Assembly: GCA_963804645.1 (NCBI GenBank)
Contig: CAWDRG010000015.1
Span: 128,001-192,000 of the forward strand
Origin: an uncultured Bacillota bacterium
GTDB lineage: Bacteria > Sysuimicrobiota > Sysuimicrobiia > Sysuimicrobiales > Segetimicrobiaceae
DNA: 64,000 nt
Reading direction: 5' to 3'
Below are positions 26,798 through 54,341 of this stretch, piece after piece. The notes under the pieces were generated by a model that was not told the origin of the DNA, did no database searches, and worked only from the letters and a program-made list of their open reading frames with translations. The number at the start of each line of letters is the position of its first letter. Position 1 is the stretch's first letter. Position numbers and translations under genes: made by a program.

Positions 26798-27493
26798 ATG
26801 CGCGCGATGTGGCTCGTGGACTGCGGCCGGCTGCCGTACGGGGATGCGTGGACGCTGCAGCGCGCCCTGCTCGCGGCGCGACAGGACGACGCGGTGCCCG
26901 ACGTGATGCTGCTGGTGGAACACCCGCCGGTGGTGACCATGGGCCGCGCCGGCCGCACGTCGAACATCCTGGTGCCGCGCGGCCTGCTGGACGCGCGCGG
27001 CATCGATGTCCACCACGTCGAGCGCGGCGGAGACGTCACCTACCACGGTCCGGGGCAACTCGTCGGGTATCCGATCGTGAATCTGCGCGTCCTCAACGAG
27101 GACGTCGTCCGCTACGTGCGCCTGCTGGAGGCGATGCTGATCCGGGCCGTCGCGGCCTGGGGCGTCGAGGGCGAACGACGGCGCGGGTTCCCCGGCGTCT
27201 GGGTCGGTGGCGCGAAGATCGCCGCGATCGGCGTCGCGGTGAAGCGCAAGGTGACGATGCACGGATTCGCGCTCAATGTCGAGCCCGATCTGTCGCATTT
27301 CGAGTTGATCAATCCGTGCGGCCTCGGCATGCCGGTGACGTCGCTCGCGCGGCTGCTCGGCCGATCGGTGTCCATCGGCGAGGTCCGGCCCGTCGTGGCG
27401 CGGACCTTCGCCGAGACGTTCGAGGTGACGTTCGAGCCGGTCGCGCTCGATGACCTCCGCGCCCGGCTGGGCGCGGCGGCTCCGCGCGCCTGA
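26798..27493 (+). CDS. lipB: Lipoyl(octanoyl) transferase
   Basis: EHPPVVTMGR, RGGDVTYHGPGQLVGYPI, KIAAIG, HGFALNV, INPCG. Confidence 0.95.
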   Translation: MRAMWLVDCGRLPYGDAWTLQRALLAARQDDAVPDVMLLVEHPPVVTMGRAGRTSNILVPRGLLDARGIDVHHVERGGDVTYHGPGQLVGYPIVNLRVLNEDVVRYVRLLEAMLIRAVAAWGVEGERRRGFPGVWVGGAKIAAIGVAVKRKVTMHGFALNVEPDLSHFELINPCGLGMPVTSLARLLGRSVSIGEVRPVVARTFAETFEVTFEPVALDDLRARLGAAAPRA

Positions 27494-34460: not shown

Positions 34461-34517
34461 TTGCAATCCGAGTCCCTTGATATGATCAAAGACCGTACCT
34501 CGATCGTACAGAGGTTG

Positions 34518-35350
34518 ATGCCGATGGCGGCGCGACACAAGTCGAAGCGACGACTTCGCACGATCTGGCGGATCCCTGAGGAGGTCTGGGCCCAACTCGA
34601 GCCGCTCCTCCCCCCCGAAAAGGCGCCCGGGACGCCCGGGCGCCCGGTGGTTCCCTTCCGCCAGGTCATGGACGGCATCCTGTACGTGCTCCGCACGGGC
34701 TGCCAATGGAAAGCGTTGCCCAGGGAATATGGATCCGGCTCCACCTGCCACCGCCGCTTCCAGGCATGGGTCGACGCCGGCGTCTTCGAGCGGCTGTGGG
34801 GCACACTGCTGACCCGGTACGACGAACTCCGAGGGATCCAGTGGCGCTGGCAATCGCTGGACAGCGCCACGGTCAAGGCGCCGTTGGGGGGGCTCACACA
34901 GGGCCCAATCCGACGGATCGCGGCAAGCTCGGGACGAAGCGCCACACGCTGACCGATCAACGCGGCGCCCCGCTCGCCGTCGTGGTGACCGGGGCCAACT
35001 GCCATGACATGAAAGCGGCGACGGCCACACTGGATAATCTCCCCATCCGGCGGCCCCGGCCGACGCCTGAGCATCCGCAACATCTGTGCCTCGACAAAGG
35101 ATATGACTATCCGGAGATCGAGGTGGCCTTGCGGAAGCGGCATTACGTCCCTCATATGCGCCATCGCGGTGAATGCCTCCCGAGACGTCGCCGGCATCCG
35201 GCGCGTCGCTGGGTCGTGGAACGCACCGGCGCCTGGCACAACCGGTTTCGGAAACTTCTCGTCCGCTACGAGAAGCGGATGGAAAATTACCATGCGTTGG
35301 TGCATTTCGCATGCGCCCTGATCGTCTACCGGCTCACGGTTTTGGGATAG
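34518..35350 (+). CDS. IS5 family transposase in two ORFs joined by a likely -1 frameshift at a G7 run (about 34886-34892)
   Basis: ILYVLRTGCQWKALP..YGSGSTCHRRFQ.W, LDS; GPNPTDRGKLGTKRH, LDKGYD, RWVVER..AW..RFRKL. Confidence 0.9.
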
Positions 35351-35386: not shown

Positions 35387-36202
35387 TCACACCCGATCGA
35401 GAAACGCGCGCAGACGGCTGAAGAGGGCGTCCGGCTCTTCCGCCTGCGGGGAATGCCCGCTGTGCTCGAACACATGCAGCTCCGCGTGGGGCAGCAGCCG
35501 CTGAATCTCCAGTGACTCTTCGACGGGGCAGATCCAGTCGTGGCGGCCGACGCCGATGAACGCCGGGACCCCGACCTTCGATAGGACCGGCCGCACGTCG
35601 TAACGCGCATAGTCGAGGATCAGCGCGCGCCGGGTCTCCGGGTCGAACGACCGCCCCGCAAGGCTGGTGGGGGCGCGGCGCTTATCGTAGTAGTAGAGCG
35701 GTTGGATCGTCTCGAACGCGCGCTGGAATGCCGCGGCCTCACGGAGCGACCCGTCCCACAGCCGTCGGTACGCCGCGATGATCTCCGGCGTGCCCTGGCG
35801 TTCGGCGTTCTCGGTCGCCCGAGCCATGAACCCGCCGCTCGGGGCGGTCCCGATCAGCACCAGCGCGCGCGGCTCGGACGGATACCGGGTTGCGTAGACG
35901 AGTGCGGCGAAGCCGCCGGCCGAGGTCCCCGCCACGATGGGATGCTCCAGGCCGAGCGCGCCGATCAGCGCGTGCAGGTCCTCCGCCTGGTCCGCGATCG
36001 TGTACGTCTCGATCGGAGCGCGCGACGACGCCCCGTGCCCGCGGTGTTCGTAGGCGACCAGCTGCACGCGGTCTGCCAGGGACCGATAGGGGCCGATCCG
36101 GTCGGGATGGCCCATCCCGGGTCCTCCGTGCACGAGCACGTACGGCGGTCCTGCCCCGGTCGTGTCGTACGACAGCTCGACCCCGCGCACGCGCACCTTC
36201 AT
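35387..36202 (-). CDS. Alpha/beta hydrolase (proline iminopeptidase-like)
   Basis: HGGPG, RGHGAS, GTSAGG, GRHDWICP, SGHSP. Confidence 0.85.
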   Translation of the reverse strand: MKVRVRGVELSYDTTGAGPPYVLVHGGPGMGHPDRIGPYRSLADRVQLVAYEHRGHGASSRAPIETYTIADQAEDLHALIGALGLEHPIVAGTSAGGFAALVYATRYPSEPRALVLIGTAPSGGFMARATENAERQGTPEIIAAYRRLWDGSLREAAAFQRAFETIQPLYYYDKRRAPTSLAGRSFDPETRRALILDYARYDVRPVLSKVGVPAFIGVGRHDWICPVEESLEIQRLLPHAELHVFEHSGHSPQAEEPDALFSRLRAFLDRV

Positions 36203-40083: not shown

Positions 40084-40362
40084 ATGGCGGAAATTTATCT
40101 CCCGACCCCGCTTCGGCGGCTGACGGAGGGACACGCGAGAATTCCCGCGGAGGGCGGTACCGTCGACGAGGCCCTGTCCGCGGCCGAGCGCCGATATCCA
40201 GGACTCCGCGAGCAGCTGCGCGATGCCTCCGGTGAGGTGCGTACCTTCATTAACATCTTCGTGAACGGCACGGAGATCCGTTCGCTCCAGGGAGGGGCGA
40301 CCCCGCTCGGGGCGGCGGACGAGGTCACGATCGTGCCGGCGATGGCCGGGGGCGTCCGGTAG
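40084..40362 (+). CDS. MoaD/ThiS/CysO ubiquitin-like sulfur carrier with masked C-terminus (GG-VR)
   Basis: LPTPLR, INIFVNG..IR.LQG..T.L...DEVTIVPAMAGGVR. Confidence 0.9.
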   Translation: MAEIYLPTPLRRLTEGHARIPAEGGTVDEALSAAERRYPGLREQLRDASGEVRTFINIFVNGTEIRSLQGGATPLGAADEVTIVPAMAGGVR

Positions 40363-40366
40363 GAAC

Positions 40367-41227
40367 ATGGACGTCTCCGTTCGAGCGCCTCAGCGGACCG
40401 GCCGCACGACGCCGGTGCTCCGCGTCGTCGACACCTCGCAGTTGCTCCTGCATGAGGAAGTGGACGCCGCGCGGGTGAGCCGGCTGTCTCACGCACTCCG
40501 GCGGGAGGGGGTGCTCCGCAACCCGCCGATCGCGGCCGGGCTCGCCGACGGCCGCGCGATGGTGCTTGACGGTGCCAATCGCGTGACGGCGCTCGCGGCA
40601 CTCGGGGTGCGCCACGCCGTCGTGCAGGTCGTGGACTACGGCGACCCCGGTGTGACCCTGGGGACGTGGCGCCACTACGTCCGCGAGCCCGGCGCCCGGC
40701 CCGGGGCCGCGCTGCGGGACCGCGCGGCGGCGCTGCCCGGCAGTTGGGTGGGTGTACGTGCCGAGCATGGGGACGGGGATGCGCACCTCGAGGCTGGTCG
40801 GGCGGCCGCGGTGATCATCACCCGTAATGCCTCGATCTTGATCGGCGGCGGAGCGCTGTCGGAGATCGCGGCGCGGCTCCGTCAGCTCGTGGCGCTGTAC
40901 CGAGATCGGGCAGAGTTCTACCGCGTGGAGACCGGGGATTTCGCCGCGCTCGAGGCCGAGTACGGTCCGGGGAGCCTCGTGGTATTCCCCCGGTTCTCGA
41001 AGGACACGGTGATGCGCTTGGCGCTGGGCGCGGACTTCCTCCCCGCGGGCATCACCCGGCACGGGATCCAGGGGCGCGTCCTGCGGCTCAATACGCCGCT
41101 CGCGTGGCTGTCGGAGGCGGGCGCGGCGGCGGCGAAGCAGCCCGAGCTCGACGCGATGGTGCAGCGCCGGTATCTGGACCACGGTGTGCGCTACTACTCG
41201 GAGTCCACGTTGCTGTTCGATGAGTAG
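40367..41227 (+). CDS. ParB/Srx-fold protein resembling SbnI/SerK free-serine kinases
   Basis: LLLHEE..R...L...G.LRNPPI....DGRAMVLDGANR.TAL..LG and C-terminal P..SK..V......LPAGITR..I.GR.L.L..PL..L...RYY.E...L.D, matching the SbnI layout as recalled. Confidence 0.65.
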   Translation: MDVSVRAPQRTGRTTPVLRVVDTSQLLLHEEVDAARVSRLSHALRREGVLRNPPIAAGLADGRAMVLDGANRVTALAALGVRHAVVQVVDYGDPGVTLGTWRHYVREPGARPGAALRDRAAALPGSWVGVRAEHGDGDAHLEAGRAAAVIITRNASILIGGGALSEIAARLRQLVALYRDRAEFYRVETGDFAALEAEYGPGSLVVFPRFSKDTVMRLALGADFLPAGITRHGIQGRVLRLNTPLAWLSEAGAAAAKQPELDAMVQRRYLDHGVRYYSESTLLFDE

Positions 41228-42149
41228 CGGCGGTCCGGATCGCGGGTCGCTGCTCGACCGCATCGGCCACACGCCGCTCGTGCGTCTCAGGCGCGTCACG
41301 CAGGACCTTCCCGACGCGGTCGAAGTCTACCTCAAAGCGGAATGGTTCAACCCCGGCGGCTCGGTGAAGGACCGGCCCGTGCTGCGCATGCTGGACGACG
41401 CCGAGCGAGACGGGCGGCTCGAGCCGGGGAAGACGATCCTGGATTCGACCTCCGGCAACGCCGGGATCGCCTACGCGATGATCGGCGCCGTCAAAGGATA
41501 CCCGGTGGAACTCGTCATGCCGGCCAGCGCAAGCGAAGAGCGCAAGCGCATCATCGCGGCGTACGGCGCGCGCATCACCCTGTCGGATCCGCTCGAGGGG
41601 AGCGATGGAGCGATCGTGCTGGCGCGGGAGATTCATGCCCGGGCCCCCGAAACGTACTTCAAGCCCGACCAATACAACAACCCGTCAAACTGGCGGGCCC
41701 ACTACGACACGACGGGTCCCGAGATCCTGGAGCAAACCGGCGGCCGCGTGACCCACTTCGTGGCGGGGCTCGGGACGACGGGCACGCTCGTCGGGACCGG
41801 ACGCCGCCTGCACGAGGCGGACCCGCGCATCGAGGTCGTGGCGGTCGAGCCGGACCGCGCCCTGCATGGGCTCGAGGGGATGAAGCACCTCGCGAGCTCG
41901 ATCGTGCCCGGCATCTATGATGCGGCCGTGCCCGATCGGACGCTGGCGGTGTCCACCGAGGCCGGCTACGCGATGGCGCGCCGCCTCGCACGCGAGGAAG
42001 GGTGCTTCGTCGGCGAGTCCTCGGGCGCCGCGGTCGTCGGGGCGCTGCTCGTGGCCGGCGCACTCCGGTCGGGCGTCGTCGTCGCGATCGCCCCGGACGG
42101 GGGAGACCGGTATCTGAGTACGCCCCTGTGGCGCGCCGACGCGGGGTGA
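41220..42149 (+). CDS. cysM: PLP-dependent cysteine synthase (CysM-like)
   Basis: IGHTPLV, KAEWFNPGGSVKDR, TSGNAG, DQYNNP.N, GLGTTGT, SSGA, PDGGDRYLS. Confidence 0.85.
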   Translation: MSSGGPDRGSLLDRIGHTPLVRLRRVTQDLPDAVEVYLKAEWFNPGGSVKDRPVLRMLDDAERDGRLEPGKTILDSTSGNAGIAYAMIGAVKGYPVELVMPASASEERKRIIAAYGARITLSDPLEGSDGAIVLAREIHARAPETYFKPDQYNNPSNWRAHYDTTGPEILEQTGGRVTHFVAGLGTTGTLVGTGRRLHEADPRIEVVAVEPDRALHGLEGMKHLASSIVPGIYDAAVPDRTLAVSTEAGYAMARRLAREEGCFVGESSGAAVVGALLVAGALRSGVVVAIAPDGGDRYLSTPLWRADAG

Positions 42150-42219
42150 GCTCGCGGTGCCATCGGGCTCCCACGGCGAGGATGATTTCGGTTACAATAT
42201 TGTGAAGGAGAGGTCGCGG

Positions 42220-42738
42220 GTGACGATTCGACTGACTCGTGCCCAACTGGAGACGATGCTGGCGCAGGCGTACACAGAGGCCCCGCGCGAGTGCTGCGGG
42301 TTGCTCCTCGGCGTCGGCGATGTCGTCGCCAGGGTGCTGCCGGCGCAGAACAAGGCGGCGGAGCTTCCGGAGCCGCGCGACCCCCGAGTGTACTACTACG
42401 TCGACGATCGCACCCAGTTGGACGCGGTGCGGTTGGAGCGGGAACACGGGTGGGAGGTGGTCGGCATCTACCACTCGCACCCAGCGACCGCCGCGCGGCC
42501 GAGCGAGACCGACCGAGCGCTCGCGGTGTGGCAGTCGCCGCACTACGTGATTATGTCGCTGGCCGATCCCAGCCGGCCGGATGTGCGGGCGTTCCGCATC
42601 ACCGACCGGGTGGAGGAGCACGGGTCCACCGTCACAGACTCGCAGGGACGGCCGGTTCGGGATGTGGTGCATGAAACGATCGTGGTGACACGCAGGCCGG
42701 CCAAGGACGTCGTGAACGAGGAAGTGGTGGCGAGATGA
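42220..42738 (+). CDS. M67/JAMM metallopeptidase (Mec-like)
   Basis: PRECCGLLLG; YHSHP....RPS.TD. Confidence 0.9.
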   Translation: MTIRLTRAQLETMLAQAYTEAPRECCGLLLGVGDVVARVLPAQNKAAELPEPRDPRVYYYVDDRTQLDAVRLEREHGWEVVGIYHSHPATAARPSETDRALAVWQSPHYVIMSLADPSRPDVRAFRITDRVEEHGSTVTDSQGRPVRDVVHETIVVTRRPAKDVVNEEVVAR

Positions 42739-43163
42739 AGGTGAGCACCCGGGCAGAGTACGGCATCCGCGCGTTGATCGATTTGGCCAGACACTACGGA
42801 CAGGGTCCTATCCAGAGCCATGACATCGCCCGCCGTCAAGGACTGCCCGAGCCGTACCTGAACCAGCTCATGATCACGCTGCGGCGTGCCGGGCTCGTGC
42901 AGAGCAAGCGCGGACCGAGCGGCGGTCACGTCTTGGCGCGCGCTCCCGAGTGCATCACGATCGGGGAGGCGTTTCTGATTCTCGAAGGCAGCGTCGCTCC
43001 GTGGCTGTGCGTGGAAGAGACCGACGCGCACTGCATCTACGCCGCGGGCTGCGGGCTGCGTCCGGTCTGGCAGGCGGTCAAGGCGGCGACCGAGGATGTG
43101 CTCAACCGCACGACGCTGGCCGACATTCTCCGGCCATCGCTCGTCTCGGTCGGCGACGCGTGA
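42735..43163 (+). CDS. Rrf2 family transcriptional regulator (IscR/CymR-like, three C-terminal Cys)
   Basis: MKVSTRAEYG, YLNQL...LRRAGLV.S.RGP.GG..LAR, LEG....C......C....C. Confidence 0.9.
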   Translation: MKVSTRAEYGIRALIDLARHYGQGPIQSHDIARRQGLPEPYLNQLMITLRRAGLVQSKRGPSGGHVLARAPECITIGEAFLILEGSVAPWLCVEETDAHCIYAAGCGLRPVWQAVKAATEDVLNRTTLADILRPSLVSVGDA

Positions 43164-43206: not shown

Positions 43207-43239
43207 CTTCACAGTGGACGGCTCGACGAGGTCTGCGGC

Positions 43240-43869
43240 GTGAGCGACGTCGGCGGACACCAGCCGACCCCGGGCGGCGCGGCGACGCCGGACGAGGCCC
43301 GTGAGGCGCGGGCTCGGTTCGAAGCACTCGTCGGGGAGCACCTGGACGGCCTGTACCGTGTGGCCCTGCGGCTCTCGCGCAACCCGACCGTGGCGGAGGA
43401 TCTGGTGCAAGAGGCGATGCTCCGGGCGTGGCGATCGTTTCATACGTTTCGCGAGGGGACGAACATTCGGGCGTGGCTCTACCGTATTTTGATGAACGCA
43501 CACGTTGATCGGTACCGGAAGGCGGCGAGGACGCCGGAAGTGCTCGAAGAGGAGATCGGCGACGAGTACTTGTACGCGGGCGCCCGCGACGGAGACGCGT
43601 TGAGCCAGGCGGGCAACCCTGAGGTGGAAGTGCTCGACCGCATCATGGACCAGGAAGTCCGGGAGAGCCTGGATGCCCTGCCGCTCCCGTTTCGCGCAGC
43701 CGTCATGCTGGTGGACGTCGAAGGGTTCTCGTACAAGGAGGCTGCGGAGATTCTTGGGGTGCCGATCGGAACCGTGATGTCGCGCCTGTCGCGAGCGAGG
43801 CACGCGTTGAAACGCCGGCTGGCGGCGTTCGCGCGGGACCGGCACTTCGTGCAGGGAGAGCCGGCATGA
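43240..43869 (+). CDS. ECF sigma factor (SigH/SigR-like)
   Basis: AEDLVQE, F..F.EGTN.RAWLYRIL.N, DVEGFSYKE.AEI...PIGTVMSRL. Confidence 0.9.
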   Translation: MSDVGGHQPTPGGAATPDEAREARARFEALVGEHLDGLYRVALRLSRNPTVAEDLVQEAMLRAWRSFHTFREGTNIRAWLYRILMNAHVDRYRKAARTPEVLEEEIGDEYLYAGARDGDALSQAGNPEVEVLDRIMDQEVRESLDALPLPFRAAVMLVDVEGFSYKEAAEILGVPIGTVMSRLSRARHALKRRLAAFARDRHFVQGEPA

Positions 43870-44090
43870 ACTGCAGCGAGGCCGTGGAAAAGCTCTGGCA
43901 GTACCTCGATCGGGAGCTCGAGGGCGACAAGGTGGTCGAGATCGAACTGCACCTGCAAGAGTGCCGCGGCTGTTTCTCCAAAGCGGAGTTCGAGCGGCAC
44001 CTCCGGTCGTTACTGCGAAGGTCGTGTGGCTGCGATCAGGCACCGCCAGAGCTGCGAGCGCGTCTGACCCGGCTGCTCCGAATGTTTTGA
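43866..44090 (+). CDS. Cytoplasmic zinc-binding anti-sigma factor (RsrA/RshA-like)
   Basis: C.....L..YLD.E......HLQECRGC...AP.ELR; no TM. Confidence 0.85.
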   Translation: MNCSEAVEKLWQYLDRELEGDKVVEIELHLQECRGCFSKAEFERHLRSLLRRSCGCDQAPPELRARLTRLLRMF

Positions 44091-45049
44091 ACACCACGCG
44101 CGCGCCCCGCCGTGCCGCGATCGACGTCGGCACCAACTCCGTCCGTCTGCTCGTGGCCGATCTCCCAGGGTGGACCCCAGGAGCGCCGACGATGCTCTCG
44201 CCCGGCGCGCAGGGTCCGATCCTCCGTCCGGTGCTCCGCCGTCTATCGATTACCCGTCTGGGTGACGGTCTCGATGCCACCGGCGCCCTTCGACCCGGCT
44301 CCGCGGCGCGGACGGCGGTCGCGATCGAAGAATTTGCCGCGGCGGCGTACCGCCTCGGCGCGCCGAACCCGGTCGTGCTGGCCACGTACGCGCTGCGCGC
44401 GGCGAGAAACCCGCAGGAGCTGCTGTCGCGAGTGCAGCGACCCGTGCGGATTCTGAGCGGGGAAGAGGAGGCGCGGCTCGGGTTCTTGGGCGCGGTTGCG
44501 GCGCTGGCTCCGCGGCACGTCGCGCCGGGCGTCCTGGTGGTCGACATCGGGGGCGGCAGCGTCGAGCTGACCTGGGGGACTCTGCGAGGCATCGAGGGAA
44601 CCCACTCGTTCCCCCTCGGATGCGTGTTGTTGACCCATCGGTTTCTCAAGCACGACCCGCCAGAGGCCGCGGAGGTCGAGGCGCTTGAGAGCTACCTCGA
44701 CGAGACGCTCGGCCCGGTGCTGGAGCGGCTGCGCACGATTCCGCACGCGGTGATCGGCGTGGGGGGGACCATCACCACGCTGGCGGCGATCGACCAGCGA
44801 CTGGAGCCGTACGATCCGGATCAAGTCCACGGCTACCGTCTTTTGGCCGATCGGGTCCGCGTGATTCTCGTAGATCTGCTTGGCCGGTCGCTGGTGGCCC
44901 GACAGACGATTCCCGGGCTCCAGCCCGAGCGCGCGGATGTGATCGTCGCCGGCGCGCTCGTGCTGCAGCGCGTGCTTGACGGACTCGGCGGGCGCGCGAT
45001 TCAAGCGAGCGAGGCCGACCTGCTCTGGGCGGCGCTGCTGGGCTACTAG
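44087..45049 (+). CDS. Ppx/GppA exopolyphosphatase family
   Basis: IDVGTNSVRL, ITRLG, ILSGEEEA, DIGGGSVE, GGTITT, RADVIVAG. Confidence 0.9.
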   Translation: MNTTRAPRRAAIDVGTNSVRLLVADLPGWTPGAPTMLSPGAQGPILRPVLRRLSITRLGDGLDATGALRPGSAARTAVAIEEFAAAAYRLGAPNPVVLATYALRAARNPQELLSRVQRPVRILSGEEEARLGFLGAVAALAPRHVAPGVLVVDIGGGSVELTWGTLRGIEGTHSFPLGCVLLTHRFLKHDPPEAAEVEALESYLDETLGPVLERLRTIPHAVIGVGGTITTLAAIDQRLEPYDPDQVHGYRLLADRVRVILVDLLGRSLVARQTIPGLQPERADVIVAGALVLQRVLDGLGGRAIQASEADLLWAALLGY

Positions 45050-45354
45050 CGGGGTCCACGACGTTCGGGTATCAGTGAAGACGGGCCGAGCGGAATGGAG
45101 CCGCGCGGGTTACGTTACGCCCCGTTACGCCCAGCCCTAAAGAATAGGCAATTTCTCGCACCACAGCCCTTTCGGCGAGCCGTTTGTCGCAGGGGTCCTG
45201 TGGGTTTTTGACCGAACGCGGGTCGGCCCCCCATAATTTTTTCTTCGCAGCAGGATTTTGGGGGGAGATAACTGAAAGATAGTACTAAGGCATTTCAGTC
45301 ACCAAAGCCTGGCGCCCAGCGGATGACCCGAGACGGGTGTCGAAGGGAAGGCCG

Positions 45355-45708
45355 ATGCGGATTCCCACCCACCCGACCCTCCTCCGGCGGCAATTGGACG
45401 CCCGCGTGCAGCAGTTGGCGGCGCAGGGGCCGGTGCTGGCGGCCAGTTTAGTGAAGATCGCGCGCCGCTGCGGGCGGCCGGGCTGCCACTGTACGCAGGG
45501 CGCGCTGCACGTGGGCCATTACCTGTCGTACAAAGTAGCGGGCAAGACGCGGATGGTGTACGTGCCGGTCGACCTCGTCGAGGAGGTCCGGGGGTGGGTC
45601 GCGGAGCACCGCCGGCTGCGCCAATTGACGCAGGAGATCACGCAACTCACGCTGGCCCAGATCCGCGGGCACGTGACGGCGCGGAAGCGGCGGGCCGGCC
45701 GGGCCTAA
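45355..45708 (+). CDS. DUF6788-like IS accessory protein
   Basis: RRCGRPGCHC..G..H...YLS....GKT...YVP. Confidence 0.7.
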   Translation: MRIPTHPTLLRRQLDARVQQLAAQGPVLAASLVKIARRCGRPGCHCTQGALHVGHYLSYKVAGKTRMVYVPVDLVEEVRGWVAEHRRLRQLTQEITQLTLAQIRGHVTARKRRAGRA

Positions 45709-47055
45709 GCGCCCTCGGGCAGACATTCCACCACACGATCCAGCACTTCTGGCCGGCGTTGAACCAGTGGCTGGCCGCGCTGCCGGACACGCGCCATCAG
45801 TCGTTCATCGAGTACGACCCCGAGTTTCTCGCCTGGTGGGGGCTCTTGCTCTTCTGCTGTAAACTGGGCAGTCGGCGCCAGTTGGACTTTGACTTGCGCG
45901 ATCCGGCGACGCAGGTGCTCCGCAATGTGAACCGGCTCGCCGGGACGCAGCACGCGACCTTGCCGGTGCACGACACGTTGGACCACTTCTTGCACCATCT
46001 GGGGAGTGCGCCGCTGGCGGCGCTGCGGACCCAGATGGTGCGCCGCCTGATTCGGATGAAGGTGTTGGATGGCGCGCGCCTGCTCGGCCGCGTCGTCGTC
46101 GCGATCGACGGGACGGGGCATCTGCACTTTCGGCGGCGGCACTGTCCCCAGTGTTGGGTGCGGCAGCATCCCGCCTACGACGCGTATCTGCACATGGTCG
46201 AAGAGGCGAAACTCCTCGGCCCCGGCGGGCTCGGGCTGTCCCTCGGGACGGCCTTTATTGAGAACGCCGATCGTCCGTCGCCGGTGGACCGGGACCCGGA
46301 CGGCGTGGAAGCAGGACTGCGAGCTGGCGGCATTCCGCCGCCTGGTGCCGGCCCTGCGGCAAGCGTATCCCCAGATGGCCTTCTGTGTGACGAGCGATGC
46401 GCTGTATGCGTGCGCGCCGGCGGTACGATTGGTCGAAGCCCAGGGGTGGAGCTATGTGTTTACCTTCAAGGCGGGGAACGCGCCGACGGCCTGGGCCGAG
46501 TTTCAGGCCGTGATGGCGTTGTGCCCGGAGAATGTCCTGCGGCTGACCCTCCCCGACGGGACGCAGCAAGTGTACCGCTGGGCGACAGGGATGTCGTCGG
46601 ACGATGGGACCGGGCGCAGCGCGTATGGGTTCAACGCCCTGCGGTGCGAGGAGACGGTGAAGGCGACGACGACGACCTTCGTGTGGATGACGAACCTCCC
46701 GGTGAGCCGGGACACGGTGGTGGAGATTGCGACGAAAGGAGGGCGACGCCGCTGGACGATTGAGGCCGGGTTCAATGTGCAAAAAAACAGCGAGCTCAAC
46801 CTGGAGCACGCCTACAGCACCGATCCGGAATTGATCAAGGCCTACTACTATCTCCTCCAGATCGCGCATATGATGCTGCAACTGCTGGAGCGCGGGAGTT
46901 TGCTCCGGCGCTTGGCCCAGCGGCACGGCAAAACGCCGGTGGCCCTCTTTGGCAGTCTCAAGAACATCGCCCGCCGGCTCCTCGAGGCGCTCCGCCACCA
47001 CGTCCTTCCCGACGAGCCGAGACCGGCCATCCAAATCCGCTTCGATACATCCTAA
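45705..47055 (+). CDS. DDE transposase; frameshift near 46305; start unclear
   Basis: VAIDGTG, CPQC, KQDCE..AF.RL, SDALYA, GR.RW.IE.GFN.QK....LEH. Confidence 0.75.
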
Positions 47056-47230
47056 GAGCGGTTCGCTGGCGGCTGCTCCGGCTCTCGTACTCGCTGTGCT
47101 CGCTGCTATGTTCCGCTTCTCGAAGTCATCGCTTCGAGCTCCCTCCCTATCACGCTCGTTTGACCCTTCCGCGATGCGGTCCCAGCCCTCCGGCTTGCCA
47201 GGTCCTATTCCTCATCGCTGCGTTACGCCA

Positions 47231-48528
47231 GGTAGTGTCAACTCTTTTGTGTAGTTTCGCATGACCCGTATCGGTATGCGTAGCGCTCATTGAGCGCCCG
47301 GATGATGGCAAAGATGATGCGCTCGCAGCTGGCCGTGTTGGTGAAGCAGGTCATCGGGCGCGTGCGGCGGCGGATCTCCCGGAAGACCCGTTCGATCGCG
47401 TTTGTAGTTCTCACTTTCCGCCAATCGGCTTCCGGGACGTCAAGGAACTTCAGCAGCGCATCCCAGTCGCGGAACAGGGTGGCGACGGCGCTGGGGGCGG
47501 TGCGCTCCCAAGCTTGCCGCCAGCGCTGCAGCGCGCGTTCCGCGGCCGGCCGGGATCGGGCTTGGTAGATACGGCGGGCCATGCGCAAACACTCGTCCCG
47601 ATCGCGGACGCGCAGGCGGTTAGAGACATTGCGGAGGACGTGGACCCAGCAGGCCTGGCGGGGGACGTCCGGATAGATGTAGTCGAGGGCGGCATGGAGC
47701 CCGCGGTGCCCGTCGGTGGTGATGAGGCGCAACTGGCTGCCGGCGAGGCCGCGCGCGGCGAGGGTGAGGAGAAAGGCGTCCCAGGTGCTGTGGCCCTCTC
47801 GGCGCACGAGCCGGAAGTCCAGGAGCTGGCGGCGGCCATCGGCCCTGAGGCCATAGGCCACCAGCGCCACGCGGCGGCGGGTGCCGTCGGGGGTTTTGGT
47901 GCGGAGGCTGACGGCGTCGAGGAAGAGATAGACCCACTCATCGGACAGAGGCCGACGGTGAAAGGCCGCCACCGCCTGGTCCAGGGTGCGGGTGATGGCG
48001 GAGACCGTCGTGGCGCTGAGGCGGTCCTCGAGCAGCTCGGCGAGCAGGGGGCCCACTTGGCGGGTACTGACGCCGCCGAGGAAGACGCTGCGGACCAGCG
48101 TATTGACGCGGTCGGTGCGGCGCTGGTAGCGGGGGAGGACCGAGGGCGTAAAGCCGTGGACCCGGGCGCGCGGGACAGTGAGGGGGAGAGTGCCCCAGGT
48201 GGTGGTGAGGCGCCGGACGTAGGAGCCGTTGCGATAGCCGCGGCGGTAGGAACTGCGGTGGTACGAGGCGGCTTTCAGATAGTGGGTCAACTCATCTTCC
48301 ATGCGGTGTTCGAGGAGACATTTCACCGCGCGGAGGCTCTCGCGGGAGATGTCCCCCCAGAGGGTGGCTTCGTCCTTGACCTCCTTCCACAGATCCGATA
48401 CGGTGAGATCGGTCAGTGCGGCAACACTGGCCACGGGCGTATCCTCCTTTCTATGGGGTAGTGGGTGGAGGGTACGCCCCCTCCCTTTCGGCGCCCTCTC
48501 GAAAGTCCACAGAGAAGCGTACACTACC
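47231..48528 (-). mobile_element. IS256 family element
   Basis: Ends GGTAGTGTCAACTCTTTTGTG / GGTAGTGTACGCTTCTCTGTG. 8-bp duplication TTACGCCA at 47223-47230 and 48529-48536. Confidence 0.9.
47238..48434 (-). CDS. IS256 family transposase
   Basis: YRNG...R.L, GVSTR, YLFLDA, TDGHRGL, Q.CWVH..RN, RTTNAIER.FREIRRR. Confidence 0.95.
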   Translation of the reverse strand: MASVAALTDLTVSDLWKEVKDEATLWGDISRESLRAVKCLLEHRMEDELTHYLKAASYHRSSYRRGYRNGSYVRRLTTTWGTLPLTVPRARVHGFTPSVLPRYQRRTDRVNTLVRSVFLGGVSTRQVGPLLAELLEDRLSATTVSAITRTLDQAVAAFHRRPLSDEWVYLFLDAVSLRTKTPDGTRRRVALVAYGLRADGRRQLLDFRLVRREGHSTWDAFLLTLAARGLAGSQLRLITTDGHRGLHAALDYIYPDVPRQACWVHVLRNVSNRLRVRDRDECLRMARRIYQARSRPAAERALQRWRQAWERTAPSAVATLFRDWDALLKFLDVPEADWRKVRTTNAIERVFREIRRRTRPMTCFTNTASCERIIFAIIRALNERYAYRYGSCETTQKS

Positions 48529-48543
48529 TTACGCCACCCGCGT

Positions 48544-48571
48544 TTGACAGGTCCGGTCGCGGTGTTATAAT
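48544..48571 (+). promoter_or_regulatory. Consensus sigma-70 promoter of tRNA-Met
   Basis: TTGACA-N16-TATAAT with extended TG. Confidence 0.85.
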
Positions 48572-48604
48572 GACTAGTGCACTTCAAATTACATACGGTT
48601 GCGG

Positions 48605-48681
<77 letters not shown>

Positions 48682-48694
48682 AGTTCACAGAGGC

Positions 48695-48728
48695 GACCCG
48701 CTCGGTAGACTCCGAGCGGGTCCTTTTT
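48695..48728 (+). terminator. Rho-independent terminator after tRNA
   Basis: GACCCGCTCGG...CCGAGCGGGTC followed by CTTTTT. Confidence 0.8.
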
Positions 48729-48748
48729 GTGTTTCGAGGGACGCGATT

Positions 48749-48799
48749 TTGACAAACTTCCACCGGCCGTGTTAAGGTACGTAGTAGCTATTGGCTACT
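48749..48799 (+). promoter_or_regulatory. TA operon promoter and operator
   Basis: TTGACA-N18-TAAGGT and palindrome AGTAGC-N5-GCTACT (48783-48799). Confidence 0.5.
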
Positions 48800-48819
48800 T
48801 ACTCGTAGAGGTGTTGGCC

Positions 48820-49089
48820 GTGGGAATCGTGACGGCGAAGCAGCTCAAGAATAGTACTGGTGAGGTCTTGCGCCGCGTGCGATCCGGCGAGATCGTAACG
48901 GTTACGATCCGTGGCACAAGCGTGGCGCAGTTCATCCCCCTGCGCGGTAGGGCCCAGGTACAGCATTTACGCCAGGCGCGTGCATCAAAACAAACTGTCG
49001 TGCGGTCCGTCGCTGGACGGTACCGGGGTGTGGGGACCCTGCGGGAATTTCTCAAGGACAAAGCTCAGGAGATTAGACAGGAGCGATAG
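48820..49089 (+). CDS. Phd/YefM family antitoxin
   Basis: VTAKQLKNSTGEVLRRVRSGE.V.VT.RG..VA..IP. Confidence 0.85.
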   Translation: MGIVTAKQLKNSTGEVLRRVRSGEIVTVTIRGTSVAQFIPLRGRAQVQHLRQARASKQTVVRSVAGRYRGVGTLREFLKDKAQEIRQER

Positions 49090-49092
49090 GCG

Positions 49093-49509
49093 GTGCCCCC
49101 ACTATTCGTCCTGGATTCGAGTGCAGTGCTGGCGTTCCTTTATGGGGAGCGTGGCCGGAATCGGGTTGAGCAGCTGCTCCTCGAGGCCGCCGAGGGCCGC
49201 GCAACGATCCGATTACATCGAATCCATCTTGGGGAAGTGTACTACGTCTTCTACCGCAAGGGTGGGGAGCGGACTGCCGAGGCCATGCTCGATGACGTCG
49301 GGCAACTACCAGTGGAAGTCGAAGATCGCGTTTCGCCCGCCCTAATGCGCGAGGCGGGCAGGATCAAGGCTTCGTACCCTATGTCTTATGCCGATGCCTT
49401 CGCTGCGGGACTGGCACGGGTTCGGAAGGGGATCCTGGTTTCGGCCGACCGCCTCGAGTTTGGACCTGTTGAATCGGCCGCCGAGCTCTCGGTCTTGTGG
49501 GTGCGGTGA
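49093..49509 (+). CDS. vapC: VapC PIN-domain toxin
   Basis: VLDSSAVLA, LGEVYY, MSYADAF, SAD.LEF. Confidence 0.85.
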   Translation: MPPLFVLDSSAVLAFLYGERGRNRVEQLLLEAAEGRATIRLHRIHLGEVYYVFYRKGGERTAEAMLDDVGQLPVEVEDRVSPALMREAGRIKASYPMSYADAFAAGLARVRKGILVSADRLEFGPVESAAELSVLWVR

Positions 49510-51269: not shown

Positions 51270-52501
51270 CGGCATTTTCGGGATTCCCAGGAAATGCGGC
51301 CATGATCTTCAGGAAGAAGTAGCCATCGTCTCGGTAGCCGTATCCCATGCGCTTGAGGACCTTGATCTTGTTGTTGATGCCCTCGAGGAGGCTGGTGTGT
51401 AACGGATAGCGACAGTGCGCGATGATCCCGGGGAGCCGCATCTTGAGATGGCGGGCAAACGTCTTGAGTGGTTGAATGCGACTGCGGATGGCACGGTGGT
51501 ACCAGTCCGTGAAGAAGCGGGTGGCGGCGCCAGGATAGGTATAGTCCCACATCTGCTTGAGATCATCCTTCAGCACGTAGACGGCCGCAAGCCGCCGGTT
51601 GGCTGCCAAGAGGTCCTGGAGTCGTACGCGATCCTCCGGCTTGACGTTCTCACGATTGCGCAAGAGGAGCCACCGCGCGCCTTTGATCACCTTGCGCGCT
51701 GCTTTGTCGCGCGCACGCGATTGGCTTCGTCCACGCGCACCCGGTCAATGACTTCGCGCCGTACTTGGCGACGACGTGGAAGAGGTCATACACAAGGACC
51801 GCGTGCGGACAATGGGCGCGCACTTCTTCTTCGTAGGCCGTGTTCATATCCATCACCACCGCCTGTAGACGCTTGCAGCCCTCGCCACCTAACAGCGCGA
51901 AGAAGGGACGGACGGCGTCGCGGCTCCGGCCTTCGCCGACCCAGAGCACGCGTTTGCGCTGGGGCTCGACCACCACCGTGGCGTAGCGGTGGCCCTTTCG
52001 CAGGGCGAATTCATCCATCGCAATCGTCGTCACGTTGGAGAAGTCGACCGGGAGCAACTCCTCTGCCAACGCGGCCACGTCCAGGTTTTTCACGGTGTCC
52101 CAGTCGAGGCCGTAGAACTCGGCCACGTGCTTCACCGGCAGGATGCGGCAGAGCCGGACCACGCTCTCCGCCAGGCGCGTGGTCACCCGGTCCCAGGCCG
52201 ACAGCCAGGACAGGGCCTCCAGTTTGGGGCCGCACGTGGGACAGGCAACGCGGTAGCGCGGCACCCATACGTGGGTCTCGGCGTCGAGCAGCGGCAGATC
52301 CCGGATGCAGCGGACCACCATCTCATGCGCCTTGGCCGTCTCTTGGCCGCACCCGGAGCACCGGAAGGTCCGCTTCTCGCGGGCCAGCGTGATCTCCACC
52401 CGCGGTTTGCCGGCGCCCGTCGTTGGTTCGATGCGCTCCACCAGCTTCACCCGATAGCATTCCCACCCGACCAGCACATTGGTAGACTGATCTCGAGGCA
52501 A
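51270..52501 (-). pseudogene. ISL3 family transposase with frameshifts near 51700-51760; ends not resolved
   Basis: CSGCG, RDLP, CPTCG, AMDEFALRKGHRYATV, MDM..AY, DLFHVV; LEGINNKIKVLKRMGYGYRD..YFFLKI. Confidence 0.85.
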
Positions 52502-52615
52502 GGTGCTCCCCCTTCCCTGAAGCGCCGTGTTCGCAGCACGTGCTCAAGGATAGGGGTGTGGTACCTTGCCTTCAACTTACACGGATAAATAAGGGCGTTC
52601 CGGGCAGGGGAGGTT

Positions 52616-52663
52616 GGGCTCATAACCCGAAGGTCGGAGGTTCAAATCCTCCCCCCGCTACCA
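52616..52663 (+). repeat. 48-bp duplicate of the tRNA-fMet 3' part (att-like site)
   Basis: GGGCTCATAACCCGAAGGTCGGAGGTTCAAATCCTCCCCCCGCTACCA, identical to 48634-48681; followed by hairpin GGGCTCGCTC...GAGCGAGCCC. Confidence 0.95.
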
Positions 52664-52881
52664 GTACAGAGGGGGCTCGCTCGAAGCATCAGAGCGAGCC
52701 CTTATCTTCTTTAAGATTATGTGGTCTCTCAAGCCGGTAACTTCCAAGCCTTCTTCGGCGAAGTAAGGGTAGCCATCTGGTCTGGTCAGGTTGACAGCAC
52801 CTTCTTCAAGTAGTGCTTCTTGTGTCCAATGGGGTAGCCATCGAGGACACCGATTTCTGCGTAGCCGAGCTTTTCATAAAA

Positions 52882-54341
52882 GGTGATGTGCTAGTCTTCC
52901 TGTAAAAGTTGACGGTCTGGGCTACCCTAATGGTGTCGCCAAACACCAGCTCCTTGTAAGGGGAGCAGAAGAGGAGCCCAGACCAATGCCCAGGATAGCA
53001 CCCAGCACCAAGATTCGGGAAGAGATCAAGCGCCTGCTTCAGGACGGCGTGGCGGAGGGCGAGGATGTGACGGGCCTGCTGTTGCGCTTGGGGGCCCAAC
53101 GGCTCGCGCAGGAACTGCTCGAGGAAGAGGCCACCGATTTTCTCGGGCGGGACCGCTATGTCCGGCACCAGCGCGCCGAGCCCCATCGCGGCTACCGGAA
53201 CGGCTACGAACCCAGCCGGGTCCGGACCGCGGAAGGCGACGTCCCGCTGCAGGTCCCGCAGGTGCGGCAGACGCCGATGCCCTACCAGTCCCGGCTGCTC
53301 AGTTTCCTCCGCGGCCATACCGATGTGCTGAAGCGGCTGGTGGCCGAGATGTACGCGCGCGGGCTGTCGACCCGGGATATTGAGGACAGTTTCCGCGACG
53401 TCACCGGCAAACGCTTGATCAGCGCCAGCGGGGTCAGCGCCGTGACCGAACGGCTGTGGGAAGAGTATCAGACCTTCACGCGGCGGGACCTCTCCGGGTT
53501 TGCCGTCGAGTACCTGTTTGTGGACGCGATCTACGAATCGCTCCGCCTCCAGGCGGGCGGGGCCGAGGCCTTGCTGTGTGCGTGGGGCATTCTCGCCGAC
53601 GGGCGGAAAGTGTTGCTGCACTTGACGTTGGGGAACAAGGAAAGCTACCGTGGCTGGCGCGGCATGTTGCGGGACATGGTCCGCCGCGGCCTGCGCCCAC
53701 CGGTCAGCATCACGAGCGATGGGGCGCCGGGCTTGCTGCGCGCCATCAAGGAGATGTGGCCGAAGAGTCTGCGCTTGCGGTGCTGGGTGCACCGAATGCG
53801 GAATGTGTTGGACAAAGTCCCCGACGCGGCGCGGGCGGAGGTGAAGGCGCACGTCGCCGCGATCCGCGATGCCCCGACCTATCAGGAAGGCACCCAGACG
53901 GCCCAGGCGGTGCTGGCGCGATTCGCGCGTCTCTACCCGACGGCGATGGCCTCTCTCAGTGACGATCTGGAGGCCAGCCTGGCGCATCTGCGCCTGCCGG
54001 TCGGCCATCGGAAGTATGTCCGGACGACGAACCTGATCGAGCGGAGTTTTCTCGAAGAACGCCGGCGCACCAAGATCATCCCGCGCTTCTTCGATGAACG
54101 AAGCTGTCTCACGCTGGTGTACGCGACCTTGGTGCGTGCCAGCCAGCGGTGGCAGCGCATTCACTTCACCGATGCTGAACGTCTCCAGTTGCACCGACTC
54201 CGTCAAGAACTGGGCCTCAGACTCCATCGTGAGCTTGTTCCATCGACTCGCACTATCGTGAAGCGCTCTAAGAGGAGGAGAGCTGCGTAGCATGCACCAC
54301 GCCCAGACCGTCAACTTTTACAGGAAGACTGGGACTTGACC
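52882..54341 (+). mobile_element. IS256 family element, 1,460 bp
   Basis: 30-bp perfect inner IR AGTCTTCCTGTAAAAGTTGACGGTCTGGGC. 9-bp duplication TTCATAAAA at 52873-81 and 54342-50. Confidence 0.95.
52986..54290 (+). CDS. IS256 family transposase
   Basis: GYRNGY, GLSTRDI, YLFVDA, SDGAPGL, RCWVH..RN, RTTNLIER. Confidence 0.95.
   Translation: MPRIAPSTKIREEIKRLLQDGVAEGEDVTGLLLRLGAQRLAQELLEEEATDFLGRDRYVRHQRAEPHRGYRNGYEPSRVRTAEGDVPLQVPQVRQTPMPYQSRLLSFLRGHTDVLKRLVAEMYARGLSTRDIEDSFRDVTGKRLISASGVSAVTERLWEEYQTFTRRDLSGFAVEYLFVDAIYESLRLQAGGAEALLCAWGILADGRKVLLHLTLGNKESYRGWRGMLRDMVRRGLRPPVSITSDGAPGLLRAIKEMWPKSLRLRCWVHRMRNVLDKVPDAARAEVKAHVAAIRDAPTYQEGTQTAQAVLARFARLYPTAMASLSDDLEASLAHLRLPVGHRKYVRTTNLIERSFLEERRRTKIIPRFFDERSCLTLVYATLVRASQRWQRIHFTDAERLQLHRLRQELGLRLHRELVPSTRTIVKRSKRRRAA

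Follow-up and report, generated by a model that had tools for sequence, protein, structure and literature searches.

A conserved five-gene operon predicted to couple serine phosphorylation to carrier-dependent cysteine synthesis in an uncultured Sysuimicrobiota bacterium

How might cysteine be made in a lineage in which no CysE is detected? This question is raised by five adjoining genes in a 64,000-nucleotide stretch of DNA from an uncultured member of the Sysuimicrobiota, or CSP1-3 (GenBank assembly GCA_963804645.1, contig CAWDRG010000015.1, positions 128,001 to 192,000; hereafter called the window). This window is part of contig C15 in a 5.3-Mb genome of 96.8% completeness. A first-pass annotation had suggested a self-contained route from serine via O-phosphoserine to cysteine, bypassing CysE as well as SerA/SerC. 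Our analysis leads us to consider it probable that the operon makes cysteine without CysE: a serine kinase would feed a carrier-dependent cysteine synthase (CysM), and a JAMM peptidase would release the product. The genes, folds, residues, patterns of co-occurrence and gene losses on which this proposal builds are observed, and the reactions that join them are predicted.

A serine kinase fold within a probable cysteine operon

All five genes are encoded on the plus strand with intergenic gaps of +4, -8, +70 and -4 nt, and their products match, in operon order, the Pfam families ThiS, none, PALP, Prok-JAB and Rrf2 (Table 1). Coordinates and domains thus agree with the gene order suggested initially, that is, sulfur carrier, ParB/Srx-fold protein, synthase, JAMM peptidase and Rrf2 regulator with short gaps or overlaps. 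We searched 61 related genomes, 44 of high quality, from one order and 7 families; CSP1-3 is likewise described as one order with 7 families (main text of PMC11962464). The kinase gene is present in 56 of the 61 genomes, including all 44 of high quality, and a CysM ortholog in 52. Wherever both were found (51/51 genomes, with a C-terminal fragment used in genome G013), the kinase gene abuts cysM on the same strand with a gap of at most 98 nt. This adjacency, together with matches of the kinase in NCBIfam, argues that the pairing is not due to chance. In the kinase tree, the window protein falls into the starred set with three Sysuimicrobiota rows.

The product of the second gene is likely a free L-serine kinase, judging from its fold and its catalytic residues. 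Its sole NCBIfam matches are to SbnI (Table 1) and SerK (E 2.7e-8), and by sequence it is placed in the same superfamily as these kinases, in another subfamily. A profile built from 124 homologs and compared with the Protein Data Bank (PDB) aligned to SbnI over positions 8-275 of 278 (E 9.5e-39) and to SerK (E 5e-16), as opposed to E values of 0.16 for ParB and 0.64 for sulfiredoxin. The AlphaFold model of the protein (pLDDT 91.9) gave a concordant result in Foldseek: the top entries were three SbnI and six SerK-type structures (E 2e-19 to 1.5e-14, TM 0.65-0.73; for SbnI, E 2e-19 and TM 0.66-0.73), whereas Noc, ParB and Srx matched over only ~80 residues with TM values of 0.21-0.25. Both comparisons therefore favour the original SbnI/SerK assignment over ParB and sulfiredoxin. 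We rejected a DNA-partitioning ParB, given that no helix-turn-helix (HTH) family of Pfam matches the protein and that the similarity is limited to the fold core. Sulfiredoxin catalysis requires cysteine, and the protein contains no cysteine residues; with a structural match that is again restricted to the core, this identity was rejected as well.

The motifs noted in the first-pass annotation are all present (LHE at residues 28-30, VLDGANR at 66-72 and PAGITR...GRVLRLNTPL at 226-245). Residues E30 and D68 align with E20 and D58 of SbnI, on both of which the kinase activity reportedly depends (PMC9641203, citing Verstraete 2018), and E30 corresponds to the residue mutated in SerK PDB entries. 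H29, E30, D68, G69, R72, G228 and R237 are invariant in 124/124 homologs, while H232 is found in only 86. The phosphate donor may be either ATP or ADP, between which the sequence does not discriminate. No Pfam model covers the protein and no relative was found on viral contigs. The link to the kinase family is not wholly unseen, as 5 of 120 listed homologs carry the JGI label 'L-serine kinase (ATP)'; in a protein atlas, most matches are to 'hypothetical' clusters, and one cluster, ranked 25th, is named 'ATP-dependent L-serine kinase family', which we regard as a lead only.

The third gene encodes a synthase that exceeds the cut-off of the cysKM model TIGR01136 (347 vs 344 bits) and stays below that of the cysM model TIGR01138 (374 vs 394 bits). 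Y152 and K222 are invariant in 34/34 aligned synthases. K222 aligns with R210 of E. coli CysM and, by way of the CysM encoded in the Nonomuraea mec-cysO-cysM locus, matches R220 of mycobacterial CysM, which we take to be a phosphate-contacting residue. The Y152 site holds Phe in five aligned plant enzymes and Tyr in mycobacterial CysM; following the conserved Gln, Phe is found in enzymes that use O-acetylserine, and Tyr is usual in those that use phosphoserine (PMC12800425). With both Tyr152 and a basic residue of phosphoserine-using enzymes present, the phosphoserine-type synthase postulated earlier is predicted from its residues. We predict that it works like the actinobacterial CysO-dependent CysM, without filing it as a member of that group. 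The genome encodes two further cysteine-synthase-like proteins, which have QF or QL at this site and no basic residue.

The closest solved relative of the carrier is mycobacterial CysO (3dwg_C, E 4.3e-14), and the motif PAMAGG is invariant in 28/28 aligned carriers. A model of the carrier in complex with the synthase dimer scored 0.61 against 0.00 for the best control, with the interface at the loop formed by synthase residues 213-226, at least 55% of contacts shared between runs and partner pLDDT values of at least 85. The mark used here is reached by 116/157 solved complexes and 2/215 mismatched pairs, rates that apply only roughly to this case, and the pass may reflect likeness to the solved 3DWG complex. 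The model supports binding of the carrier to the synthase, with chemistry that would follow the CysO precedent. Relative, conserved residues and model together support the proposed carrier link. The carrier terminates in AMAGG-VR, two residues beyond Gly-Gly, and only 6 of 49 locus matches (some genomes counted twice) end exactly at GG; trimming by the JAMM peptidase is therefore likely needed. The peptidase carries the JAMM motif E...HSHP...PSxxD, shares 33% identity with the Mec-like product of the Nonomuraea locus and is fused to CysM in loci L023, L076 and L078. The Rrf2 protein contains three cysteines (C92, C100 and C106) and possibly binds an Fe-S cluster; its scores against CymR (104/195 bits) and IscR (78/208 bits) are both under cut-off, which places it in the Rrf2 superfamily only.

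Carriers also occur as part of longer reading frames. Carrier and CBS are in frame past Gly-Gly in L023, L072, L076 and L086, the carrier at L090:7071-7652 reads into ~100 further amino acids, and the proteins P0105 and P0131 join carrier and kinase in frame. Such proteins resemble ubiquitin fusion precursors that JAMM could free; alternatively, they could be separate starts in one frame. A second CysO-like carrier is encoded elsewhere in the genome (G000:C17:548602-550137); it is 55% identical, ends in GG-AR and lies behind a threonine-synthase-like gene that the assembly breaks into three frames.

Table 1. Genes of the predicted cysteine operon in the window
Feature	Position	Strand	Length	Support
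CysO-like ubiquitin-fold sulfur carrier	40084..40362	+	92 aa	Pfam ThiS, E 1.8e-12
SbnI/SerK-fold protein, likely free L-serine kinase	40367..41227	+	286 aa	NCBIfam SbnI, E 1.2e-17, under cut-off
CysM-type PLP cysteine synthase, likely O-phosphoserine-using	41220..42149	+	309 aa	TIGR01136 cysKM, over cut-off
JAMM/Mec-like metallopeptidase	42220..42738	+	172 aa	Prok-JAB, E 1.2e-23
Rrf2-family regulator	42735..43163	+	142 aa	Rrf2, E 1.1e-37

Supply of serine, phosphoserine and sulfur

If the kinase provides phosphoserine, which other sources does the genome retain? None of the 61 genomes has a cysE gene over cut-off (best score 53/211 bits; controls pass in 8/14), and the suggested bypass of CysE is thus supported. 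No serB was found in any of the 61 genomes either. Full-length serA is present in 40 of them, a count based on at most 19 scored candidates per genome, so that some absences may be misses, and it is not present in the genome of the window. In all five congener loci that we fetched (L155-L159), an aminotransferase gene is followed by serA and then by a seryl-tRNA-synthetase-like gene (product read from the translation). At the corresponding site of the window's genome (G000:C10:37219-39690), aminotransferase and serS-like gene are 23 nt apart in the middle of a contig with no serA between them, and nothing in the genome matches SerA better than at 37-39% over the catalytic part. Since the neighbours of serA directly abut each other mid-contig, the gene was deleted rather than missed by the assembly. 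The genome has thus cleanly lost serA while the kinase operon stayed intact, and because one was lost and the other kept, the kinase is the likely source of phosphoserine in this organism. Across the lineage, full-length serA is lacking in 13 of the 44 high-quality genomes, 9 of which keep the kinase-cysM adjacency.

The bypass of SerA/SerC is accordingly supported in part: it fits the window's genome with its loss of serA, but not the lineage, in which most genomes (40/61) keep the full-length gene. Canonical SerC, DUF1015, TrpB2 and full-length CBS were not found in the window's genome, which does retain the serC-like aminotransferase; a second copy of this gene, 76% identical, is located at C9:818519-819643. 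GlyA is present. The components of the CysO/CysM/Mec pathway are all encoded, comprising the Gly-Gly carrier, the JAMM peptidase and a MoeZ-type activator. However, the route is not self-contained as had been suggested: the single MoeB-rhodanese (MoeZ-type) protein is encoded on contig C5, away from the operon, and neither PAPS reductase nor sulfite reductase was found in the genome. Assimilatory sulfate reduction is commonly encoded in the CSP1-3 phylum (main text of PMC11962464).

These observations suggest the following scheme. The kinase would convert serine and ATP (or ADP) into O-phosphoserine; serine itself would come from glycine via GlyA or from uptake, because serA has been lost. JAMM would remove the -VR tail seen on the carrier to expose Gly-Gly, and the MoeZ-type protein, acting in trans, would adenylate and sulfurate the carrier as its mycobacterial counterpart does. 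CysM, with its phosphoserine-type residues and modelled carrier interface, would then condense O-phosphoserine with the thiocarboxylated carrier to yield carrier-Cys, from which JAMM would free cysteine; the Rrf2 protein likely regulates the operon. Sulfuration of the carrier, formation of carrier-Cys and release of cysteine are modelled on the mycobacterial scheme (PMC3227635).

Homologs in other lineages and competing explanations

Is the connection to phosphoserine a peculiarity of this lineage? The kinase family numbers 1,102 representatives at an E value of at most 1e-10, and we inspected the best 80 of at least 526 loci from a scan over 39 of 64 parts, many of these rows being close kin. 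CysM, carrier and JAMM occur together in 24 of the 80 loci. A CBS-like neighbour is found in 19 loci, TrpB2 within 700 bp of the kinase in 14 and at a greater distance in another 4, and at least one of these types of pyridoxal phosphate (PLP) enzyme is near the kinase in 54. TrpB2, which uses O-phosphoserine (PMC11917138), adjoins the kinase in two separate branches, Anaerolineales and Betaproteobacteria. Kinase-carrier-CysM-MoeZ clusters with other gene orders also occur outside the CSP1-3 set, in two members of the Anaerolineae (L090 and L121). Among 151 Anaerolineae genomes, cysE is present in 15 of 55 kinase-positive vs 57 of 96 kinase-negative genomes (p 1.8e-4, uncorrected for kinship). 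In the 30 best loci, TrpB2 adjoins the kinase in 4/11 cysE-positive and 0/19 cysE-negative cases, and CBS, carrier or JAMM in 7/19 cysE-negative and 0/11 cysE-positive cases. Fusions were found among 21 long homologs that we scanned: nine to 2-hydroxyacid dehydrogenases, three of which score best as PGDH (357-382 bits), two of ThiS and kinase, and one of JAB and kinase. Phosphoserine is the common thread of these neighbourhoods. In freshwater Betaproteobacteria, kinase and trpB2 are located next to serB (L079, L085, L088, L089, L093, L094, L096, L102, L114, L124 and L137), and these loci thus unite a kinase, a phosphatase and a phosphoserine user.

Several observations weigh against the proposed pathway. 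The kinase is only ~20-22% identical to SbnI and scores far below the NCBIfam cut-offs (SbnI NF033589, 64/350 bits; SerK NF053625, 33/380 bits). No scored neighbour (CysM, CBS, carrier, JAMM or TrpB2) is found in 22 of the 80 loci, and 15 of the 55 kinase-positive Anaerolineae carry cysE. Of the 13 high-quality genomes lacking full-length serA, the four that do not keep the kinase-cysM pair belong to genus g10 and have the kinase without this CysM; in the one inspected closely, JAMM and Rrf2 are still beside the kinase. In three of the four, the sole TrpB match is TrpB2, located 6-12 kb away from the kinase, and the other cysteine synthase has Phe. The window's genome retains ~28 other 2-hydroxyacid dehydrogenases besides its serC-like aminotransferase, and a stand-in or a hidden short SerA may be among its genes. 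A MetX-like gene is also present; its scores are below every cut-off, it stands at the end of a peptide ABC operon and it is matched in only 6/31 genomes, and we rejected it as a serine acyltransferase since it lacks the Gly-Leu-Ser-Ala/Pro motif.

The failure to find serB in any of the 61 genomes also fits a reverse role of the kinase, and the serC-like/serA pair in 40/61 genomes could supply phosphoserine. The kinase could then mainly connect the serine and phosphoserine pools, either in reverse as a substitute for SerB or in serine assimilation via SerC/SerA, with CysM fed mostly by SerA/SerC. The position of serA behind the serC-like aminotransferase, the dehydrogenase fusions in 9/21 long homologs with their three PGDH-type members, the complementation of serB by the SbnI-like SerBK/DUF1015 (GapMind 2026, PMC13759103) and the assimilation of serine by SerK in Thermococcus (PMC5120207) all speak for this role. 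Yet serA is lost here while the kinase remains intact between cysO and cysM, the kinase of the lineage adjoins cysM rather than serA, and the reverse reaction is unfavourable (K ~4e-4; PMC13759103). As the main function we consider this unlikely, but linking the pools may be a second job of the kinase that is compatible with the cysteine pathway. Marginally less probable still is that the kinase provides phosphoserine to a synthase that takes free sulfide or thiosulfate, like Thermococcus CysK or S-sulfocysteine synthase, with carrier and JAMM acting in different sulfur pathways. The synthase indeed resembles E. coli CysM (E 6.5e-74) more closely than mycobacterial CysM (E 1e-60) and lacks the actinobacterial C-terminal tail, ending 9 residues past YLST where the Nonomuraea enzyme runs for ~20. 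Neither residue used above is diagnostic alone: cystathionine beta-synthases have the same Tyr, and K222 occupies the position of E. coli CysM R210, which is thought to bind thiosulfate (PMC9547175). In addition, JAMM was retained in genus g10 after CysM loss, and at L106 and L108, CysM and JAMM are encoded in a locus that lacks a carrier gene. On the other side stand the 24/80 loci that combine carrier, CysM and JAMM, the CysM-JAMM fusions, the modelled carrier interface and the kinship of the carrier to CysO.

We consider it improbable that the ParB-fold protein acts in regulation or redox chemistry, be it as a DNA-binding ParB, a sulfiredoxin or a heme sensor in the manner of SbnI, rather than as a metabolic kinase. 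The ParB/Srx core is shared, a heme-linked regulatory role is also attributed to SbnI (PMC9641203), CTP binding was seen for a SerK-like fusion in a survey (PMC12704722) and genes for a redox sigma/anti-sigma pair come after the operon; however, the short, low-scoring matches to ParB, Noc and Srx, the missing HTH family and cysteines, and the Rrf2 regulator that the operon already contains argue otherwise. We give least credence to a different product of kinase and PLP enzyme, for example 2,3-diaminopropionate via the SbnA/SbnB route, or to a different hydroxy-amino acid as their substrate. Although the 2,3-diaminopropionate route is the known job of SbnI, the synthase reaches only 197 bits with the SbnA model (cut-off 350), less than with any of the cysteine synthase models, no SbnB-like gene is among the five, and the neighbours are sulfur-transfer genes. 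The proposed cysteine pathway thus remains our preferred interpretation. Extended beyond this operon, it would describe a widespread bacterial family of free serine kinases feeding the phosphoserine users of their hosts (carrier-dependent CysM, TrpB2), which replaced CysE across CSP1-3, provides the sole entry to cysteine here, where serA is lost as well, and is accompanied by polyprotein-like cutting of carrier-CBS and carrier-kinase fusions by JAMM; we rate this broader proposal only slightly better than even.

Genomic surroundings and relation to known systems

No sigma-70 promoter was found ahead of the operon, no terminator inside it and no riboswitch between window positions 36000 and 50000. 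Four peat metatranscriptomes from one study contained 6-10% of the words, and short metatranscriptome contigs covered parts of JAMM, Rrf2 and downstream genes and none of carrier or kinase, neither of which shows anything either way. The operon is followed by genes for a SigH-like ECF sigma factor, an RsrA-type anti-sigma factor, which scores over cut-off, and Ppx/GppA (window 43219-44090 and ~44096-45049). Genes for sigH are found in 22 of the 80 kinase loci, and given these neighbours the operon may be under thiol-stress control. The lipB gene is just upstream of the operon in 23/80 loci (within L064-L139); in the window, a lipB-like open reading frame (ORF) lies ~12.5 kb upstream (~26800-27490), with transposase and ABC transporter genes in between. 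Transposase-like ORFs, some of them frameshifted, flank the region (34461-35350, 45337-48641 and 51653-54287), and a tRNA-Met (48605-48681) precedes an antitoxin/PIN-like pair (48727-49509), identified by reading the translation.

How does this operon compare to known systems? With staphylococcal SbnI (PDB 5uje, 5ujd and 6nr6; NF033589), the kinase shares the whole fold, the E20/D58 pair and the W-x-H and PAGxTR motifs; it differs in its low identity, its lack of cysteines and its location in a cysteine operon rather than a siderophore cluster. SerK and CysK of Thermococcus kodakarensis (PMC5120207; PDB 5x0b-5x0k) convert serine via phosphoserine to cysteine without serine acetyltransferase, and SerK residues E30, D69, R73, W102 and TRH align with the kinase. 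Unlike the protein studied here, this SerK is archaeal and ADP-dependent, serK is not in an operon, no carrier is described and, according to that work, bacteria have no clear-cut homologs. The mycobacterial mec-cysO-cysM system with MoeZ (3dwg; PMC3227635, PMC12910592) likewise has a CysO-like carrier, a JAMM peptidase and a MoeZ encoded elsewhere, and its CysM resembles our synthase in PLP, QY and the basic residue at R220. In the window, by contrast, a kinase gene separates carrier and synthase, the carrier has a C-terminal extension, and the synthase belongs to another subgroup with a GLEGxKH loop and no C-terminal tail. Operons of ThiS/MoaD, E1, JAB and cysteine synthase have been predicted (Iyer et al. 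2006, PMC1779556, Table 1 row 4c), with carrier, JAB and synthase clusters outside Actinobacteria that include Chloroflexus and Acidobacteria; the main text of that paper mentions no ParB-fold or kinase gene ('ParB' 0 times), and E1 lies apart in our case. SerBK/DUF1015 is a remote SbnI-like family also proposed to act as serine kinases (GapMind 2026, PMC13759103), but it represents another Pfam family, sits with serA and serC, complements serB and was not found in this genome.

We consider the operon real, conserved and coherent, and a new wiring of known parts. The SerK-CysK route of Thermococcus, the carrier route of mycobacteria and carrier-JAB-synthase operons outside Actinobacteria are already known; the clean loss of serA, the pattern of g10 and TrpB2, the contrast within Anaerolineae and the fusions are added here. 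The first-pass annotation knew of no description of this combination, and among main texts in open-licence PMC and bioRxiv we likewise found no paper that pairs a serine kinase with a carrier-dependent cysteine synthase. Serine and cysteine receive 0 mentions in the main text of the Sysuimicrobiota paper, and cysteine a single one, with no mechanism, in that of the CSP1-3 soil paper (PMC11962464).

If correct, the proposed pathway would close the gap in cysteine synthesis that is apparent in an abundant phylum, uncultured and without detected cysE. It would also extend the carrier-protein route to cysteine beyond the Actinobacteria, to which carrier-dependent CysM has been restricted in a review (PMC9547175). 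Finally, it would assign a function to a kinase family that has no Pfam model, and suggest a source of the phosphoserine used by TrpB2.

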